Shown in pieces: positions 29,290 through 49,870 of a DNA stretch of 64,000 nt. The position numbers and the translations under genes were made by a program. Origin of the DNA: a virus; the IMG/VR virus record IMGVR_UViG_3300036791_001907, positions 32,001 through 96,000 of that record; one strand, 5' to 3'. Numbering within the stretch: position 1 is the stretch's first letter; the number at the start of each line of letters is the position of its first letter. The notes beneath the pieces were generated by a model that saw nothing but the letters and a program-made list of their open reading frames with translations, had not been told where the DNA came from and ran no database searches.

Positions 29290-29689
29290 ACCGACGGCCA
29301 GCGGTATATCTGGCGGTGATGGCAGCGATGGGTATGTTGCGGCGGGCCGAGCTACGTCGTGGTAGGTCCGGCAGCTGCGGTTGGGTTCGTCATGGCGAGC
29401 CGAGCATGGGTATGCTCCGTCATGGCAGCCGAGGCATGGTTTGTTGGACCATGGCGAGATGAGCTTAGCCGAGCTTCGGCGAGGCAGCCGGGGTGTGGTT
29501 CGGCGGGCTGTGCGGCGCCACGCCAGGGTTGGGCAGCTCAGATCAGGTGTGGACAGCTCTGGCCGGCAGCGCCAGGTCATGGCAGCCGAGGATAGACCTG
29601 GCCAGCCACGCGGAGCCGTCGTGAGCCGGGGCAGCATTGGCTGGTCACGTCATGACACGGCCAGTCGAGCACGGCCATGTTATGTCAGC
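29290..29689 (+). ncRNA. Guide-RNA array 1: pseudoknot repeat plus 7 pentamer-coded units (VIPR-like)
   Basis: 33-nt repeat at 29290-29322, then units such as GGCA|GCTGC|GGTTG|GGTTC|GTCAT|GGCGA|GCCGA|GCATG|GGTAT|GCTCC|GTCAT|GGCA. Confidence 0.85.
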
Positions 29690-29706
29690 ATTGAAAGGAG
29701 GTGAAT

Positions 29707-29928
29707 GTGTCAAAGATAGTTCATTTGATCTATCATCGCGTCCCCAACGATCGGATCTCAGACATGAGCGAGGTCGTGGGGGTCGTGACCACGGGCTGGC
29801 AGGATGCCGATGCGATCGTGGATCAGCTCAACGCGCGGGACCCATCCGGATTCGGCTGGCAGCGCGACTACTGGAAAAAGGAGGTTGATGTCATCACCAA
29901 GGATGATGTTCCGCGTCGCACTCCATGA
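29707..29928 (+). CDS. Small hypothetical protein between arrays
   Basis: GTG start after AAGGAGG; the pentamer periodicity stops here. Confidence 0.55.
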   Translation: MSKIVHLIYHRVPNDRISDMSEVVGVVTTGWQDADAIVDQLNARDPSGFGWQRDYWKKEVDVITKDDVPRRTP

Positions 29929-29940
29929 CAGGAGACAGCG

Positions 29941-30207
29941 ATGATCTGTCCGGAATGCGGGCATTCCAACCCGGTGATCGCCGCCGAGTGTCTCAAGTGC
30001 CGGTGCCGGTTCCTGGAACACGGTTGTTTTTCCGAGCAGTATCAGCACCCGCTCGTCGGCAAGCGAATCCAGGTCAATACCAGGACCGGCTGCATGGCCG
30101 AAGGGGTCGTGGAGCGGGTGGTGTCTTCACGTTTCGGCCTGCTCGCCTGCCTGGAAGGCGAAAACGGCAGGGCCTGGGCCGTGAACCAATGCACGCCGGT
30201 CACCTGA
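29941..30207 (+). CDS. Small Zn-ribbon protein between arrays
   Basis: 'CPECG...CLKC'; RBS AGGAG. Confidence 0.6.
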   Translation: MICPECGHSNPVIAAECLKCRCRFLEHGCFSEQYQHPLVGKRIQVNTRTGCMAEGVVERVVSSRFGLLACLEGENGRAWAVNQCTPVT

Positions 30208-30219
30208 CCGGCGTCATGG

Positions 30220-30629
30220 ACCGATGGCCGGCGGTATATCCGGCGGTGGTGGCTAGCCCTGGCGACATCAGCAATGGTCGCGCGAGCACTGCCGTGGCGC
30301 GTTCAGGCAGTACAGGCGGGGTGATGCGGGCAACGGCAGGGCCGGGTCCGTCCGGCGATGTCATGCCACGGTATGGCAGCTCAGGTGAGTTCAGATCGGC
30401 CATGCGCGGGCTGGCTGCGGTGACCAGAGGTGGGTCGAGCCGTGGCGAGGCAGCGTAGCCATGGAAGGGTCGGGTCGGTTGAGCTGCGGCGAGCCCAGCT
30501 GACGCAGGGCTGGCCGCGGCAGCAAAGAACCGATGGCCAGCGGTATATCTGGCGGTGACGGGAAGCATCGGCAGCGACGGAATGGCAGGGCAAGTTGCGT
30601 CTTGTTCCGGCCAGCCAAGTCATGGCTGC
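30220..30629 (+). ncRNA. Guide-RNA arrays 2-3: two pseudoknot repeats, 5 units; the last unit matches the downstream RAMP gene
   Basis: Repeats at 30220-30252 and 30529-30561; GGCA-delimited pentamer tracts. Confidence 0.85.
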
Positions 30630-30754
30630 GTCGTATTGCCGATCACTACGAGGACGATCCGCCTGCGCGGTGGATCGGAACACGTACTGAACACCCTACA
30701 GTTGCAGGGCCGCGGGACGCGCGGCCCGTCTCACTGGCGACAAAGGATGATCCA

Positions 30755-31666
30755 ATGCCAGCCAAGAAAGGTCCGGCCAAGGGGACAGTCCCGGTCAACA
30801 TCCCCCAGCCACAGATCCTCGACTTCGGGATCGGACTCATCGGCGTGACGCCGACGATCTCGAACGCATTCCCGCAGAAGATCCGTGAGAAGCTCGTGGC
30901 TGATCACATGCACATGCCTGAGGCCCTCATCCCCCACGAGGCCAAGGACCCGTGCGCCAACTTCAGCGCGTGCATCCACTACGTCAAGTCCAAGGACGGT
31001 GGGGTCAACTTCGCCATGCCCGGCTCCTCGTTCAAGGGGGCCATGGTCGCGGCGTGCCGGATGACCAACAAGAAGTTGGACATGGCCAGTGCCAAGCAGT
31101 TCTTCCAGGTGATCCCGTTCCGGGTCCAGATGTACGGCGACGAGCCGATCATGTGCGAGCACCGGGTCCGCAACGACAACGGCGGCGTCGACATCCGGCA
31201 CCGGGCCATGTACTGCCGTTGGTCGGTGATCCTGCCGATCCGCTACCACGCGGGGTCGATCTCCAAGGAGTCCCTGATCTACCTGGCGGAGCTGGCCGGC
31301 TTCGGCTGTGGCATCGGTGACTGGCGGATCGCGGCGCCCAAGAGCCCCAACGGGCAGATGGGCGCCTTCCGCGTGGCCCGCGAGGGCGAGATCGTCGGCC
31401 CGGCGTACTCCAAGTGGTGCGCCAAGAACCCGTTCGACTGGGACGAGTTCGAGCAGTACGGCATCGTCCCGCCCGCGCGGGTCGAGTACTACCGCAAGGC
31501 CGCCGAGATGGTTCGCGGCCTGCCGCCCGAGCAGCGGGGCACGCCCAAGAAGGGCAAGAGCCGGAAGGCTGTGCCCACCGCTGCGGCCGCCGCGGCGATC
31601 ATCAACGGCGTCCAGCCCGTCGACGGCCTTGAGCCGCCCGATGACGGCTACGTGCCGCAGCAGTAA
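30755..31666 (+). CDS. vipr: Stand-alone RAMP/Cas7-like RRM protein; putative RNA-guided effector (Vipr-like)
   Basis: 303 aa from ATG 30755 (RBS AAAGGA). First strand 'IGLIGVTP', RAMP helix motif 'MPGSSFKGAM', C-terminal G-rich loop 'AGFGCGIGDWR...GQMGAFRV'. No other cas genes in the window; flanked by the arrays. Confidence 0.8.
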   Translation: MPAKKGPAKGTVPVNIPQPQILDFGIGLIGVTPTISNAFPQKIREKLVADHMHMPEALIPHEAKDPCANFSACIHYVKSKDGGVNFAMPGSSFKGAMVAACRMTNKKLDMASAKQFFQVIPFRVQMYGDEPIMCEHRVRNDNGGVDIRHRAMYCRWSVILPIRYHAGSISKESLIYLAELAGFGCGIGDWRIAAPKSPNGQMGAFRVAREGEIVGPAYSKWCAKNPFDWDEFEQYGIVPPARVEYYRKAAEMVRGLPPEQRGTPKKGKSRKAVPTAAAAAAIINGVQPVDGLEPPDDGYVPQQ

Positions 31667-31741
31667 CCACTTCGTGCAGGAGGACGACCGGGGGCCAGGA
31701 TGGCCCCATCTTTCCCGCAACCCTAGCAGCAAGGATCGAAC

Positions 31742-32275
31742 ATGCCATCGGGTGTCAAGAAGAAGTCATCAGCGCCGGCGCCGGCGCTCAAGTACGAGTT
31801 CCGGGCCTGCTTCCGGAGCCCGCTCGATCCCAACGTCGTCGCGGCGCGGCTCGAATGGCTCAGAACCAGACTGAGCCGGGACCCGGAGGGTCAGGACGTC
31901 CTGGAAGACGCCCGGCCCGTCGGCTCGCCGTTGCATGATCACTTCGACTGGAATGACTACGAGGCCGGCGAGAAGCATCGGCTCGGCCAGGCCACGGATC
32001 TGATCAACGCCATCCGGGTCACCGTTTACGTGGTGGCGAAGCCCAAGGGGCGGGTCAAGCAGCTGCTGCCGGCCTATGTCCGGCTGAAGAACCCCGCCGG
32101 TCGGCGCACCTTCGTCGCAGCGACCATCGCGACGGCAACGCCCCGGCGCGCAGAGACGCTGGCGGAGACCATCATTCGGTATGCACACATGGCGACTCGC
32201 GATCGCGCGCTCGGGCTCACCGAGCTGGATCCGCTGTTCGACGTGATTGATAAGTTGAAGAAGCGGTACGGCTGA
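31742..32275 (+). CDS. Accessory protein of the RAMP locus
   Basis: 177 aa; 'ARPVGSPLHDHFDWND.EAGEKHRL.QATDLINAI' is a phage hypothetical motif I recall next to such RAMP-like genes. Followed within 10 nt by a pseudoknot repeat. Confidence 0.7.
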   Translation: MPSGVKKKSSAPAPALKYEFRACFRSPLDPNVVAARLEWLRTRLSRDPEGQDVLEDARPVGSPLHDHFDWNDYEAGEKHRLGQATDLINAIRVTVYVVAKPKGRVKQLLPAYVRLKNPAGRRTFVAATIATATPRRAETLAETIIRYAHMATRDRALGLTELDPLFDVIDKLKKRYG

Positions 32276-32283
32276 TGCAGCAG

Positions 32284-33923
32284 ACCGACGGTCGGCGGTA
32301 TATCCGGTGGTGACGGGAAGGCGGCAGAGATCCGGCTTCGTTCGCTCCGGCGTGCGACGCTGGGGCCCGGCAGCCAAGGACCGGCGTGGCAAGCCGCGTT
32401 CTGGCTTGCAGCGTCTAGGTTCGGCCGCAGCGGAGGGCCAGGCCGGGGTAGTGTTCGGCTCCGCAGGTCGAGGCTTGTCCCGGTTCGGCAGCTCGGGTGC
32501 GTCGTGCTGCGAATAGGCATCGTGAGGCTGGCTTCGGCAGCGTCAGGCAGCGGCGGAGGGCCTTGTCCGGGTGTGGCATTCGGCGGCTTGGCGTGCCCAG
32601 GTGAGCCGAGGCCGTACAGGTTAGGCGGGATGCGCCCGGCACTGCAATGGCCTGCTCCGGCTGGCCGGGCAGTAAAGAACCGACGGCCAGCGGTATATCT
32701 GGCGGTGACGGCAGTTCAGGAGCGGATGGGACGGCCCAGGCAGGGCTTGTTACGGCCCGCCGGGACTCGTTTCGGCGCCGCCGTATTGGTCTGGCTTCAC
32801 ATGCCGTGGCGACGTGAGCCGCGGTCAGCACAGGAGCGGCAGCGATGGTTCGTCTAGTCTACACAAGGCAGGCCCAGGCAGCCGGAGGTATGCCCAGCAG
32901 GGCCATGGCCGTACAGGACAGCAGGGGTAGGTAAAGCACGGGCAAGCCGTGCCGGGTCCCGGCAGCGAAGCCGAGTTCCGGTGTGGTGCGCCGTGGTGGC
33001 GTCCGTCACGGCGGGCCATGTCGCGGCTAGTCAAGTCGCGGCAGCAAAAAACCTATGGCCACAGGTATATGTGGTGGTGATGGCAGGCAGGGCAAGCCCT
33101 GTCACGTCGCGGTGCGGCATGTCCCGGCAGCGTAGGCTTGGTCAGATACGCGAAGTCCTGGTACGCCGCGGCCGGCACAGGTTAGCTGCGGCCAGGCAGC
33201 ATAGGCTCGTCCCAGCAAAGGCAGGTCGCGACAGGGCTGGCCGCGGTTCGGCAGCATTGGCTGGGAAAGCCCAGCCCAGGTTCGCCGCGCCACGCAGGGC
33301 TTCGGCGGGGCGGGGCAGTCAAGGATCGGCATGGCGTGTCTAGCCACGGTCCGTCATGGCGAGTCGTGCTGCGGCAGCGGCGGAGAGCCGAGCCGTGGTG
33401 GCAACTGGTGGGCCAAGCTACGTTGTGGCGACGCCGGATAGGTATGGCATGCCCCGGACTGCCATGGCGAGTCATGGCGGGCCATGGCGAGCCGTGGCCG
33501 CGAAGGAGTGGCCGCCCGGCGTTCGTCCGGCGTTGGTTGGTCTAGGTAGGGACGCGTCAGCCGGGGCAGTCATGGTTTGGCGCGGCTTGCCTGGTCGTGC
33601 CACGGCAAGCGATGCCAGGGATGGGCAGCAAAAAACCCATGGTCACGGGTATATGTGACGGTGATGGTGCGGCAGCTCGGCCCTGCCATGATGGGGCATG
33701 TCGAGCCGCGGCCAGCAGCGCAATGGTAGCGCTGGTGTTCCCAAGCTTGGCCTGGGTAAGTCAAGCGCTGGCCAGCCGGGGCAGCGAAGGTGAGGCTAGA
33801 TCTATCGAGCCTAGCGCTGTCATGTGCTGGTGAGCCGGGGTGAGCCTCGGTACGGTATCGCCGCTCTGGCGGCGTTAGTCGTGACATCGAAAGCTGTGGT
33901 ATGCCGAGTCGAGGTCAGACAGC
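32284..33923 (+). ncRNA. Guide-RNA arrays 4-7: four pseudoknot repeats, about 24 units
   Basis: Repeats at 32284, 32679, 33051 and 33635; continuous 5-nt periodicity reset by 4-nt GGCA/GGCC/CGCC delimiters. Confidence 0.9.
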
Positions 33924-33936
33924 AGAGGAGGTGTGA

Positions 33937-34152
33937 ATGATCGGACCCAAGTGCGAGTGCCGAAAGCCGACCTTTCCGTCTGAAGACGAACAGTCCTGGC
34001 TGTGCATGAACCCGGAGTGTGCGGGCTTCCAGCAGGTCTACTGCGAGTTGACGCCGGCAGACCTGGCGCTCATCGCCAAGCTGAAGGCGCTGGCCAATGG
34101 CCACTGGCAGCGTGTTGCAAAAACCCGAAAACTCCGCGGTACCAGGAAGTGA
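33937..34152 (+). CDS. Small Zn-finger protein inserted in the array
   Basis: RBS GAGGAGG; 'CEC...CMNPEC'; lacks pentamer periodicity. Confidence 0.6.
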   Translation: MIGPKCECRKPTFPSEDEQSWLCMNPECAGFQQVYCELTPADLALIAKLKALANGHWQRVAKTRKLRGTRK

Positions 34153-34157
34153 TGAAC

Positions 34158-35835
34158 GGTTCGGCAGCCGCGGTGAGGTGCGACCGGGTTCGTCCAGCGA
34201 TGGCGGACCTTGGTGTGGCATCACAGCAGTAAACCTATGGCCACAGGTATAAGTGGCGGTGATGGAATGGCAGCATCGGACGGGCTCGGACGGGCCATGA
34301 CGGGCCGGGTTAGCTGTGCCGCGTCAAGGCAGTACTGGCTAGGTTTTTCAGGGCATGCTCTGGTGCGCCTGGTCACGGCCGTCTAGGTGAGGAGTCGCGT
34401 GCAGCGGCTTGCCACGGCCAGTTCTGTCGAGGCAAGCCGAGGCCGTCAAGGTGCGGCCAGGCAAGTAATGCAGGGATCGGGCTGGCTATGGTCCGGCCGC
34501 AATGGCAAGGTTAGTTGCGGCTGGTACCGGCGGGGCGAGCCCTGCTGTGGTATGGCCGTAACGGTAGTCCGCGGAGCGCCATGGACGGCCCCGCTCAGGC
34601 TGGCCAAGGTCGGCCGAGGCAGTCTTGCAAGGGATCGTCCAGCCTGGTTGTGCCATGGCCAGGCAGGGGAGCAGAGGTGTGTTCTGGCACCCTGTGATCT
34701 GGCCGGCCAAGTCACGGCAAGGCCGGGCAGCAGTAAACCCATGGTCGCGGGTATATGCGACGGTGATGGAAGGGCAGCCGTGGACAGCAGGGTTATGATG
34801 CGCTGCGCAAGGGCTGGTCCTGGCAGGCCAAGGATCGGCAGGAGAGCACAGGTCCGGTCTGCATAGTAGTGGCGAGACCTACCATGTCGAGCCGGGTTTC
34901 GGCAGCAATGCGAAGGTGAGCCTTGCCGGGGCGGCCGTAGCTGTGGCAGTGTAGTCGAGTCGTGGCAAGCCTAGTCCGGCATAGTTGGGCTCTGGTCCGG
35001 TCCGGCAGCAGAAGTGTGTCTTGGTCCGCCGCGTCGCGACGCGGTGGGATCCGGCAGTAATGGTGCGGCTAGTCATGGCGCCGCGAGCCGCGCTGTGTCA
35101 TGTCATGATCTGGCTAGGCCGGACAGCAAAAAACCGATGGCCAGCGGTATATCTGGTGGTGACGGGAAGCATCGGCAGCGACGGCAAGCCGTGGTGTGGT
35201 ATGCCCGGCTCCGCCAAGCTACGGCAGCAGTGGGCAGGCTGGGCAGGTTTTGCTCCGTCGTGTCGAGTGTTGGTAAGGCAGCCATGGTGTGGCCCGGCGC
35301 GTCATGTCGCGTCGTCCTTTGCGCCGGCATGGCGTGGCCGCTGTGGCAAGACACCCTTAGTCATGATGGGGCCGGGCGGGCACCTGTTTGCTGCGCCGAG
35401 TCGTGGCAGTGACGCAGTGGTGTGTTGTGCCCCGGCCTGCCCCGGCGAGTCCTGTCATCGTGGGCAGCGCTGAGGCAGCAAAAAACCCATGGCCACGGGT
35501 ATATGTGGCGGTGATGGACAGCCCCGCGCTGGCCGGCTTTGGTCAGCCATGCAGAGCTGCGGCAGCAGAGGTGAGGCGTGACCAGCACAGCCGGGGTACG
35601 GTTCGCTGTGCCCTGGTTAGGCAGGTGGGTCATGGTTCGCGATGGCGCGTTGAGCCTTGCCATGGTGAGGCAGCAATGGATCGGCGGGCTGTGGCACGGC
35701 AAGCCTGGGTCGGATCCGCTGCGGCAGCGGAGGTGCGGAACGCCATGGACCGGCAGGGTGGGCCAGGGTGGGCCGAGCCACGGCAGCACGGGTGTGCCGT
35801 GTCCGGCCTAGTCAAGGACGGATGAGCCGCGCACT
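34158..35835 (+). ncRNA. Guide-RNA arrays 8-11: four pseudoknot repeats, about 26 units
   Basis: Repeats at 34233, 34737, 35133 and 35485; same pentamer grammar; ends at a strong hairpin. Confidence 0.9.
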
Positions 35836-35840
35836 GTGGA

Positions 35841-35870
35841 AGGGGGCGTGGTCTTCGGGCCACGCCCCCT
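35841..35870. terminator. GC-rich hairpin with cUUCGg tetraloop closing the array
   Basis: AGGGGGCGTGGTC-TTCG-GGCCACGCCCCCT, between the + strand array and a convergent - strand gene; U-tract weak. Confidence 0.7.
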
Positions 35871-40395: not shown

Positions 40396-42321
40396 TTATG
40401 GCGTGCTGAAGTAGCCGCGCTCGGCGCGCGCATCCTCGTCGGTCCAGCCGATCTCGGCGTTGCCGGCGGCGCGCACCTGCTCCGGCGTGAGCCGGTAGCC
40501 GGCGCCGGCGGCGAAGTTGGGCCAGGCGTCGTTGGCGTGCCAGAGGGTGGCGCAGCCCAGGTTCACGGCCTGGGCGAAGTCGTCGGTGAAGCCGGTGGCG
40601 CGCTTGATCAGGTAGATGTCACCTGCATGGGTGCCCGGTCGCTTCTCGTCGACTAAGGCCAGGAAGTCCTCGATCAGGCCCGCCACGCCGTCGTACTTGA
40701 AGAACCGGATCAGCTTCAGCTTGATCGACGAGGTCACGTAGATCAGGCTGCGGGTCTTGTCCAGCGAGTGCCGCGTCCGCTGGTGCTGGGGCGTGGCCGG
40801 GTGAAAGGTCATCAGCGAGTGCGTCGCCGACCGGACATACTGAATGGGCATGATCCGGGAGATCGGCACGCCGGCCTGGGTCAGGAATGTCTCCCTGAGA
40901 ATTCCCGCCCCGGTGTAGTCATGCGCAACGAGGTCGGGCTGGAACAGCTGGAAGTAGTGGAAGATCTCCTCGGCCTCATGAATGTGTTCGTGTGGGTTCA
41001 GAAGGCGGCGGCCCCAGAGCACGTCGATCCGGCCGTCGGTGCGCAGTCCGAGCAGGGCCACCACCGTGAACGACACGCCATCTTCACCGCCGCCGCCCCA
41101 GTCGATCCCCAGCACGGTCATCCGGTAGTTGCGCAGCCGCGCCATGACTTCCGGCCGCGGGTCCAGGGGGCGGTTCTCCCAGGGCAGCTCGGCCGCTTCC
41201 TGGAGGTCGGGCAAGGTGACCAGCTGGTTGCCCGTGGCCGACGACTCTCCCAGAACTTCATTGATAAACACATGCGGCGCCGTGTTGGCGGCGCCGTCGC
41301 GCTTCAGGAGCAGCTCGGCCCACTTCTTGCGCACCGCATAGTGCAGGGGCATGATCGGCTGGGGCACGTGCAGCCCCAGCCGCTCCCACCGCCGCTCCGG
41401 GTGGCGGTGCACCCAGCGGCCGTAGCGGGGATTGATCGGCTTCCGGCAGCGATGGCAGATGGTCCCCGGGCTGGCCTCGGAGATGTCGTCGTGCAGCGGA
41501 CCGAGCATTGCCTCCAGGTGGAACTCGAGGCTGGCGATGTTCCAGGCGCCGCAGCTGAAGCAGGGGGTGAACCACTCACCCCGGCTCGACCGCATCCATT
41601 CCCCGTGAATAAAGTTGTCCAGCGTCTTGGGGGTGCCGGTGACCTGGGTGATCCCGTACTCCTTCGAGGCCGACATGGTTTCCCGGATGATCGGGATATG
41701 ATCGGGGTCCATGTCCTGCGCTTCGTCGATCCCCACCTTCCCGGCCGGAATGCCGCGGACGCGGTCGACGTCCAGCAGTGCGAATGAGAAGAACATCCGG
41801 CTGCCGTTGTGGAACGTGCGCAGGAGCACGTTGCCGGTGGTCTCGGTGGAGACCCAGAGGTCACGGACCGGCGACTGCTTGATGAAGGCGCCTACATATT
41901 CCGTGGAGAACCGGCGGATCTGCTCGTAGCGGGGGGTCACAAACAGGGTCGAGAAGTGGGGGATCGCATTGGCCAGGGCCACGCCGTGGCTGGCCATCGA
42001 CGTCGACTTCGAGACCTGCCGCCCGGTGATCATCACCACATTGGTGGGCATCCGCACCCGGAAGAGCGGACTGAACGGGAAGTAGTCGTGGAGGCTGTAG
42101 GGCTTACCGTTCAGGTTGAACAGCAGCGGCAGGAGCGGCTCGAGCGTCTGGACCGAGCCCAGTTCGCAGAGCTTGCGGACCGAGATGATCCGGTCGACGT
42201 CCGAGATCGCGCGGCCTTCCTGCTCGGCCCGTTCCAGGTCGGCCAGGATCGCGCCGGTCTCCTTGAGCCGGCGCTCGGCGAGCAACTGATCCTTGCCTGG
42301 TGTCTTGAGCGCAACGGACAT
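40396..42321 (-). CDS. terL: Terminase large subunit (GpA-like)
   Basis: Walker A 'GRQVSKST', Walker B 'IDEAQD', 'GTPKT' coupling motif, CxxC...CxxC insert, nuclease 'LGIDWGGG', terminal 'DDFAQA'. Confidence 0.88.
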   Translation of the reverse strand: MSVALKTPGKDQLLAERRLKETGAILADLERAEQEGRAISDVDRIISVRKLCELGSVQTLEPLLPLLFNLNGKPYSLHDYFPFSPLFRVRMPTNVVMITGRQVSKSTSMASHGVALANAIPHFSTLFVTPRYEQIRRFSTEYVGAFIKQSPVRDLWVSTETTGNVLLRTFHNGSRMFFSFALLDVDRVRGIPAGKVGIDEAQDMDPDHIPIIRETMSASKEYGITQVTGTPKTLDNFIHGEWMRSSRGEWFTPCFSCGAWNIASLEFHLEAMLGPLHDDISEASPGTICHRCRKPINPRYGRWVHRHPERRWERLGLHVPQPIMPLHYAVRKKWAELLLKRDGAANTAPHVFINEVLGESSATGNQLVTLPDLQEAAELPWENRPLDPRPEVMARLRNYRMTVLGIDWGGGGEDGVSFTVVALLGLRTDGRIDVLWGRRLLNPHEHIHEAEEIFHYFQLFQPDLVAHDYTGAGILRETFLTQAGVPISRIMPIQYVRSATHSLMTFHPATPQHQRTRHSLDKTRSLIYVTSSIKLKLIRFFKYDGVAGLIEDFLALVDEKRPGTHAGDIYLIKRATGFTDDFAQAVNLGCATLWHANDAWPNFAAGAGYRLTPEQVRAAGNAEIGWTDEDARAERGYFSTP

Positions 42322-42424
42322 CGTGTTCCTCCATGAACGGCGCTGTGCGCCCGGAGCCACGGGTCCGATCCTACAATGGCGTGTGTGGCCAATACAATGT
42401 CAGCAACCAACTTAGGAGCGATCC

Positions 42425-46147: not shown

Positions 46148-49870
<3,723 letters not shown>

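Follow-up and report, generated by a model that had tools for sequence, protein, structure and literature searches.

A staggered VIPR guide array in an uncultured soil phage carries a guide matching motif C of family A DNA polymerases from integrated elements

The 64,000-nt window analyzed here spans bases 32001-96000 of a 161,481-bp virus contig (IMG/VR record IMGVR_UViG_3300036791_001907) and contains a VIPR system, a kind known from 2026 preprints. VIPR systems are phage-borne and combine a minimal RAMP protein, Vipr, with an accessory gene and vrRNAs built of GGY/NN pentamers; their guides measure 9-16 units and the vrRNAs carry a structured, conserved 3' tail (10.64898/2026.04.26.720920, 10.64898/2026.04.26.720927). 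Phage genes are present in the window, among them those for baseplate J, a gpA-type terminase and an intein-containing class II ribonucleotide reductase, and no close cultured relative of the phage was found. At the locus, a vipr gene encoding a RAMP/Cas7-like effector occupies positions 30755-31666 of the plus strand, within the longest open frame, which begins at 30533. It is followed, in the vap position, by a partner gene of 177 aa (31742-32275, +), an open reading frame (ORF) without a Pfam family that we consider a candidate vap; in three related loci, a gene of 178-189 aa likewise stands directly after vipr. The two genes are flanked by pentamer arrays, the main one at 32277-35840 (+), with ~45 guide runs, and two upstream blocks belonging to the same locus at 29321-30522 (+), with 10 guides found by the parse.

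The assignment of the effector was based on both sequence and fold. In a single-sequence search of the PDB, the sole match of ORF 30755-31666 was the Vipr protein of SUSP1 (E 0.001), and a profile made from this ORF and 9 homologues, when compared with 177,635 PDB sequences, again retrieved only the SUSP1 protein (36pp_D, E 1.6e-5), the alignment covering the ...aG..CG.GDWR loop. An AlphaFold model of the vipr product (predicted local distance difference test [pLDDT] score 67) gave top Foldseek matches that were nearly all Csm3, Cas7 or Cas7-11 chains (probability 0.9-1.0, E about 2e-3); the fold predicted from the single sequence was unusable (pLDDT 33). Published Vipr proteins are minimal RAMPs with an RRM core, a G-loop and a thumb (10.64898/2026.04.26.720920, 10.64898/2026.04.26.720927), and the profile match together with the fold places the present protein among them. 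It is nevertheless larger than SUSP1 Vipr (~300 aa versus 202 aa), and a 44-residue stretch alone is alignable between the two by sequence.

Across the 3.5 kb of the main array, there is no long credible ORF and no 3-nt coding periodicity. The autocorrelation of G reaches 0.25, 0.23, 0.20 and 0.17 at lags of 5, 10, 15 and 20, respectively, a strong 5-nt periodicity, which together with the repeats and the parse defines the array as a series of G-S-Y-N-N pentamers. Rfam and tRNA scans of the array were empty, and blastn against cultured phages gave no match. A phase-tracking parse divided the array into runs of 9-15 pentamers split by the 4-nt separators GGCA, GGCC or CGCC. Position 1 of the pentamer is G in 73% of cases, position 2 is G or C in 73% and position 3 is C or T in 68%, with positions 4 and 5 near-uniform. 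The runs fit the pentamer form of vrRNAs, with a G-S-Y consensus looser than GGY. GGCC+G or GGCA+G stands after most guides, and staggered VIPR arrays with 1-nt overlaps have been described (fig. S18 legend, 10.64898/2026.04.26.720920). Eight copies of a 49-nt tail repeat (..AAAACC.ATGG..GGTATAT..GGTGATGG) were located, one at 32663-32711 (+) and the others starting at 32268, 33035, 33619, 34217, 34721, 35117 and 35469; the stem of the repeat, as read from the sequence, covaries (GCCAG/CTGGC, GTCAC/GTGAC, GTCGC/GCGAC).

Two further features were observed within or next to the array. A Cys-rich ORF of 71 aa (33937-34152, +; ..CECRKPTFPSEDEQSWLCMNPECAGFQQVYC..), preceded by a GAGGAGG ribosome-binding site and assigned to no Pfam family, lies mid-array and breaks the pentamer phase. 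Directly 3' of the last guide, at 35842-35869, is a perfect GC-rich hairpin (GGGGGCGTGGTC TTCG GGCCACGCCCCC), probably the terminator of the array transcript.

In their overall organization, the locus and the systems of the VIPR preprints are alike: a lone, phage-encoded RAMP-like gene, a small partner gene and flanking pentamer arrays, with targets read with 1-nt skips at the wobble base and no self-targets. The differences lie in the array, which here is very large (~55 guides) and staggered, with 4-nt GGCA/GGCC separators of the fig. S18 type, and in the guides, which lack individual tails of their own, the tail repeat occurring just 8-9 times. Class 1 CRISPR-Cas systems offer a more distant parallel, in that the RAMP-fold subunits of the Cas7 backbone hold the guide RNA periodically and silencing by binding, as in CRISPR interference, is presumed. 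However, the present locus has neither CRISPR repeats nor cas genes nor an adaptation module, and its period is 5 nt with 2 read bases, rather than 6 nt with 5 read bases.

A preliminary description of this DNA, made from its letters, picked out four stretches of the array and read them as guides aimed at replication and packaging genes. The NN dinucleotides decoded there are identical to those in our parse, with 10-12 G-S-Y-N-N pentamers per stretch. Guide A (32550-32609, +) has 12 units, GC GG TT CG GT AT GC TT GT CA GA GA, and spells AG(F/L)RVIA(F/L)V(H/Q)(D/E)(D/E); it is preceded by GGCA punctuation (32546-32549, +) and closed by a ggcCG unit (32610-32614, +), the last G of which opens the next guide, giving a 1-nt overlap. 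Guide B (35057-35116, +), also of 12 units, AT GC TA AT GC GA GC GT AT AT CT TA, spells (I/M)AY(I/M)A(D/E)AV(I/M)(I/M)LY. The final R of an 'LYR' reading proposed for it was dropped, the 13th unit (35117-35121, +; ggcCG) being inter-guide punctuation rather than a free unit. Guide D (35727-35781, +; 11 units, GA GC AC AT CC AG GG AG GG GA AC) spells (D/E)AT(I/M)P(S/R)G(S/R)G(D/E)T, and guide C, the last of the array (35786-35835, +; 10 units, CG GT GT CG TA AA CG GA GC CT), spells RVVRY(K/N)R(D/E)AL.

The choice of strand for this decoding was assessed with codon statistics from 633 genes of the phage and four relatives. For the pooled NN dinucleotides of 48 guides, the log-likelihood was -1485 when they were read as sense codon positions 1+2, -1555 for the antisense and -1503 for a uniform model; a mixture model gave weights of 0.74, 0.07 and 0.19 to the three, respectively, and guides A-D had posteriors of 0.86-0.96 for the sense reading. 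The guide dinucleotides (29321-35840) are GA-rich and TC-poor (0.12 versus 0.04), like positions 1+2 of coding-strand codons. This bias supports the sense peptide reading without proving it, and constraints at the RNA level could contribute. The three matched targets described here are all on the sense strand, and those of published VIPR systems are on both strands.

Guide A had been labelled as motif C of family A DNA polymerase (Pol A), and its best database matches, at 22-23/24 read bases, fall exactly at this motif in family A polymerase genes. Scanning 185,579 species genomes (GTDB) with a 20-base guide A pattern produced 7 matches, 3 of which are Pol A motif C, every one in a metagenome-assembled genome (MAG) of Planctomycetota: G005:C2:33564 (EGFRVIAFVHDE, 23/24), G006:C326 (EGYRVIAFVHDE, 22/24) and G007:C144, a Fuerstiella (SGYRVIAFVHDE, 22/24). 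The remaining 4 are in unrelated frames and about as numerous as expected by chance. A nine-unit pattern with Y at the F/L unit matched 118 stretches in metagenomes; among the 80 listed, the two best sites score 23/24 and lie in C-terminal fragments of polymerases reading ...QGLAGDGAKDSLWRLMRAGYRVIAFVHDEFLIEL, in which the QG.AAD helix and VHDE strand of family A are recognizable; a third polymerase match among those listed scores 20/24. There are thus six Pol A sites, three of them in MAGs of Planctomycetota and three in metagenome contigs (23/24 for L162, L068 and L075, 22/24 for L167 and L168, 20/24 for L069), with the motif C sequence (E/A/S)G(F/Y)RVIAFVHDE.

At every one of these sites, the match is in frame, on the coding strand, and the skipped base is the wobble position; across the six, identity is 95% at read positions and 65% at skipped ones. 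Published VIPR targets follow the 1-nt skip within coding sequence, the wobble base being skipped, with >=80% of NN bases matching; among the four guides, guide A alone has such a target in the sequences covered here. On the G005 contig, the maximum reached by 1000 shuffled guides was 20/24. The gene hit in G005 encodes a 903-aa exonuclease-plus-polymerase (PF01612; PF00476, 6.5e-27; phrog_17 'DNA polymerase', 9e-67), and the site lies in the context ...NTPFQGLAADGAKL...REGFRVIAFVHDEVLIELP, that is, in the VHDE strand following the QG.AAD helix of PF00476, VHDE being invariant in a three-sequence alignment. Further members of the clade match at just 19/24 (EGYRIIGFVHDE) and 17/24 (AGFKVANFIHDE), and guide A is thus specific for a sub-lineage; because one further clade member has the AGF prefix, an unsampled AGFRVIAFVHDE polymerase variant with a perfect guide A match is plausible. 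A protein-level scan of all local sequence returned guide A sites only. In IMG/VR, nine units of guide A had one match, antisense to an HNH gene and ascribed to chance, and the relatives of the target polymerase were distant (23-44% identity) and carried no guide matches. A mismatch-tolerant scan of 401 Planctomycetota genomes recovered only G005 and one chance match. Taken together, the sequence matches support Pol A motif C of integrated elements as the target of guide A.

Two of the 23/24 sites (L068:800-1090 and L075:4151-4403) lie in C-terminal polymerase fragments of ~80 aa. A stop codon directly precedes each fragment, and the sequence ahead of the stop is unrelated, being a truncated beta-lactamase-like gene in the case of L068. 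Such fragments could derive from elements in decay or from joins made during assembly.

The surroundings of the target genes point to mobile elements. In G005, the polymerase has as neighbors an AAA_24 ATPase, an IS200-type transposase and a primase-helicase (DUF3854/DUF3987), and ordinary cellular genes lie to either side on the contig (pyruvate:ferredoxin oxidoreductase, ExbD, Ser/Thr kinases, WD40). The Fuerstiella MAG shows PrimPol-DUF3987, Pol A, D12 methylase and tyrosine integrase in this order, followed by a host gene. No capsid or terminase genes were seen in the target elements. Given the replication and integrase neighbors and the flanking host genes, the targets are, judging from gene content, self-replicating integrated elements, either cryptic prophages or satellite-like. 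All polymerase targets in named genomes belong to Planctomycetota, a phylum with very few known phages, which provides a clue to the host: the targets alone suggest, without proving it, that the phage infects a planctomycete.

Related phages show the same preference. Two of them, L203 and L205, have syntenic VIPR loci with arrays of their own and Vipr proteins 53% and 56% identical, respectively, to the present one. A guide of L205 (L205:13107-13161) matches G005:C2:26914 at 20/22, where the AAA_24 gene encodes its Walker B region (HDYRTLVIDTV); this gene belongs to the same integrated element as the polymerase matched by guide A. A guide of L203 (L203:11922-11981) scores 22/24 at G004:53855 (L042), in a family A polymerase gene (1081 aa, UDG/exonuclease/polymerase) from an IMG/VR phage that is a distant relative of the one studied here. 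Both matches are in frame and in the sense orientation, with scores reached by 0/2000 shuffles. Thus, the VIPR lineage repeatedly aims at the replication genes of other elements.

Some guides and loci could also be compared directly among these relatives. The guide at 35624-35668 is common to this array and that of L203 (L203:13682; GG AT TC xT GC GA TT AT GA, 17/18 bases), and nearly all remaining guides differ between the two. In the closest IMG/VR relatives, G001 and G002 (terminase 83%; one rated 100% complete, 226 kb), a 5-nt-periodic array was not found, and close kin seem to differ in whether they carry the VIPR locus.

The phage itself appears to be free of sites for these four guides. 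On the whole genome of the phage, the best gapped matches of the A-D group were 67%, 67%, 77% and 75%, within the null obtained with shuffled guides, and self-targets of the four guides are thus absent; the peptides spelled by the guides, previously found to be missing from the ORFs of the window, are missing from the whole 161-kb genome too. A family A polymerase and a DnaB-like gene of the phage are encoded outside the window. Motif C of this polymerase is NAFQIVLQIHDA (LQIHDA), and as it matches guide A at just 12/24, the polymerase should be spared. When the complete genomes of four relatives, recognized by their terminases (83, 83, 56 and 38% identical), were searched with every guide of the phage, none reached 85%. 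Beyond these genomes, gapped searching gave a divided outcome, guide A matching integrated elements and guides B, C and D yielding no target in IMG/VR (exact scans) or in the sampled Planctomycetota. With the phage and four relatives free of sites, the targets located in integrated elements and the guides of two related VIPR phages matching replication genes, the suggestion of the preliminary description that the array interferes with competing phages or integrated elements is supported.

We consider it likely that the four stretches are vrRNA guide segments of a staggered phage VIPR array and that guide A is directed against a rival's Pol A gene. In characterized VIPR systems, double-stranded DNA is read by the NN pairs, which leave out a single base from one pair to the next, usually the codon wobble, and binding results in silencing of transcription (10.64898/2026.04.26.720920, 10.64898/2026.04.26.720927). 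By analogy, Vipr protomers would polymerize along the RNA, holding the G-S-Y triplet of every pentamer, and the NN dinucleotides would read double-stranded DNA with single-base skips, so that binding would silence transcription. Since the skipped base is the wobble position of a codon, a guide effectively spells a peptide, and guide A spells AG(F/L)RVIAFVHDE, the motif C strand with the catalytic aspartate of family A DNA polymerase. It is probably directed against the polymerase gene in a family of integrated, self-replicating elements or phages found in Planctomycetota genomes; silencing of this gene would stop replication of the rival, and the phage's own polymerase, with its divergent motif C (LQIHDA), would escape.

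Several observations weigh against this interpretation. The full 24-base guide A pattern has no exact match in IMG/VR, in the 185,579 species genomes or in JGI metagenomes, and the terminase of this phage, searched for in the three target MAGs, was not found. Published VIPR guides converge on one element (10.64898/2026.04.26.720920, 10.64898/2026.04.26.720927), whereas the guides here do not converge on one sampled element: none of the ~50 other guides of the phage reaches >=85% on the Pol A-bearing contigs, and nothing above the background for short guides came from another Pol A element in G005 or from the element of G012, scanned together with its flanks. Due to this lack of convergence, the sampled elements are probably relatives of the true target rather than the target itself. 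Finally, what speaks for guides B, C and D is their form and composition alone.

The latter point bears on the possibility that all four family labels are right, and that the guides address the Pol A, a DnaB/RecA-type ATPase, an excisionase and a terminase of a rival. Guide A is confirmed, the AAA_24 Walker B match of the L205 guide shows that guides of the lineage do hit replication ATPases, and guide B has 'ADAV..L' in common with a W-A-D-A-V-L-F-L strand encoded by the AAA_24 gene of the target element (15/24). Against this, B, C and D were target-less not only in the phage and its four relatives but also in full exact scans of IMG/VR (including a scan with nine units of B), on polymerase-bearing contigs, where no target was accepted, and in the three target MAGs with up to 3, 2 and 3 mismatches, respectively. 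In 251 Planctomycetota genomes, guide B had two 21/24 matches, both ascribed to chance (upstream of MnmG and in a 21-aa frame), and a mismatch-tolerant scan of 201 Planctomycetota genomes with guide D gave none. We therefore regard the correctness of all four labels as very improbable. By form, B, C and D are equally good guides and probably also spell coding-strand peptides, their family labels being guesses. A Pfam scan of X-padded decoded peptides returned nothing, even for the confirmed guide A, and hence had no power.

Taken individually, the labels of guides B, C and D are unverified, not disproved. Motif H4 of DnaB carries an 'EQD' signature, IEQDAD.V..LYR in PF03796 proteins; guide B lacks E-Q-D, the R of its 'LYR' is punctuation and no DnaB-family site was found. 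AAA_24 was considered as the family of guide B and rejected, as 120 close homologues keep THKWAD.VLF(L/A)N and share at most 6/12 residues with the guide; the 'RecA-like' part of the label is a weak lead. An excisionase/HTH_17 site would carry R.VR(F/Y)...(D/E)(L/V) in the wing of a PF12728-type protein; for guide C, labelled excisionase-like, no target was found, no HTH_17 gene set having been scanned. A 17/20 match of guide C on G005:C2 lies in an unlikely 88-aa frame and was dismissed as chance (p 0.006 before correction for ~150 tests). The P-loop of a terminase ATPase domain reads G.GK(S/T); guide D has GA (D/E) where the Walker A lysine codon needs AA, and its best match on the whole genome of the phage, including the terminase gene at 40396-42360, is background. 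Because the terminase reading needs this lysine mismatch and no target was found, the inclusion of packaging genes among the targets is unsupported.

Just as improbable as the correctness of all four labels is that guide A is aimed at a cellular Omp28-like family, members of which end in ..LRVIAFVQDD.T.EILQAVQV and match at 19-21/24. This family accounts for at least about a dozen of the listed metagenome matches and for one Gemmataceae genome match, and the read bases do not separate H from Q or D from E. However, these matches were selected through the last nine units, and in the first three units they agree at 1-3/6, the chance level, whereas the Pol A sites agree there at 4-5/6; the best Pol A site scores 23/24, compared with 21/24 for Omp28. 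An even more remote explanation is that all four peptide readings result from pattern-matching by the reader and reflect chance resemblance. With ~50 guides, two-fold ambiguous letters and a large stock of known motifs, some resemblance is to be expected, and B, C and D would fit this account, having no target in any search, a punctuation unit read as R in B, a mismatch at the Walker A lysine in D and 6/12 shared residues in the closest family member found for B. Yet the family named in advance for guide A is exactly where the best database matches fall, 3/7 genome matches and the top listed metagenome matches being Pol A motif C, in frame and at 22-23/24, above the shuffle maximum, and for guide A the chance explanation is already refuted. 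Regulation of the phage's own genes by the guides is the least credible of all, being refuted at the level of sequence matches by the self matches of 67-77% and the 12/24 score of the phage's own motif C given above, and by the absence of LYR from its DnaB-like gene.

The closest functional parallel to guide A is vrRNA4 of SUSP1, which reads near-invariant codon positions 1-2 of the F5 satellite recombinase, making synonymous escape impossible (10.64898/2026.10.15.759431). In a similar way, guide A would read codon positions 1-2, near-invariant here too, in a gene essential to a rival, with the difference that the site is the catalytic motif C of a Pol A from integrated elements of Planctomycetota rather than the recombinase of an E. 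coli satellite, that the footprint is 12 units rather than 6, and that the target of guide A was assigned from sequence matches. Mutational escape from guide A should be hard, because the read bases are fixed by protein function and only the skipped bases can drift. Descriptions of VIPR go back no further than 2026, with natural targets known from E. coli and Pseudomonas systems; the present analysis adds the assignment of a natural target for the staggered-array VIPR of an uncultured 161-kb soil phage, and evidence that a guide can be written against a catalytic motif of a rival DNA polymerase. As to method, peptide decoding can predict targets, but it takes a database match to separate the real prediction (1/4) from plausible-looking ones.

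A broader and more speculative possibility, which we hold to be rather less likely than not true of the array as a whole, is that it is largely a library of 'protein-motif guides', many of them spelling invariant catalytic motifs of replication and defence enzymes (for example, Pol A motif C, SNF2 motif I and an AAA_24-type Walker B), with each silencing an enzyme lineage across diverged rivals. The phage would then protect its own enzymes by divergent motifs, such as LQIHDA instead of FVHDE. If so, targeting would be broad-spectrum and escape-proof, directed at protein families and not at individual elements.

Two observations concern other parts of the window. The guide at 33377-33431, which has been decoded as motif I of SNF2, agrees at 21/22 read bases with a site on a metagenome contig (L061:8466-8497, minus strand), within an 863-aa ORF reading ..LLIADEVGLGKTIEAGLL.., and, as decoded, is a second guide spelling a conserved enzyme motif. 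Outside the VIPR locus, at 46148-49870 (+), the class II ribonucleotide reductase gene is split by an intein carrying an HNH endonuclease.

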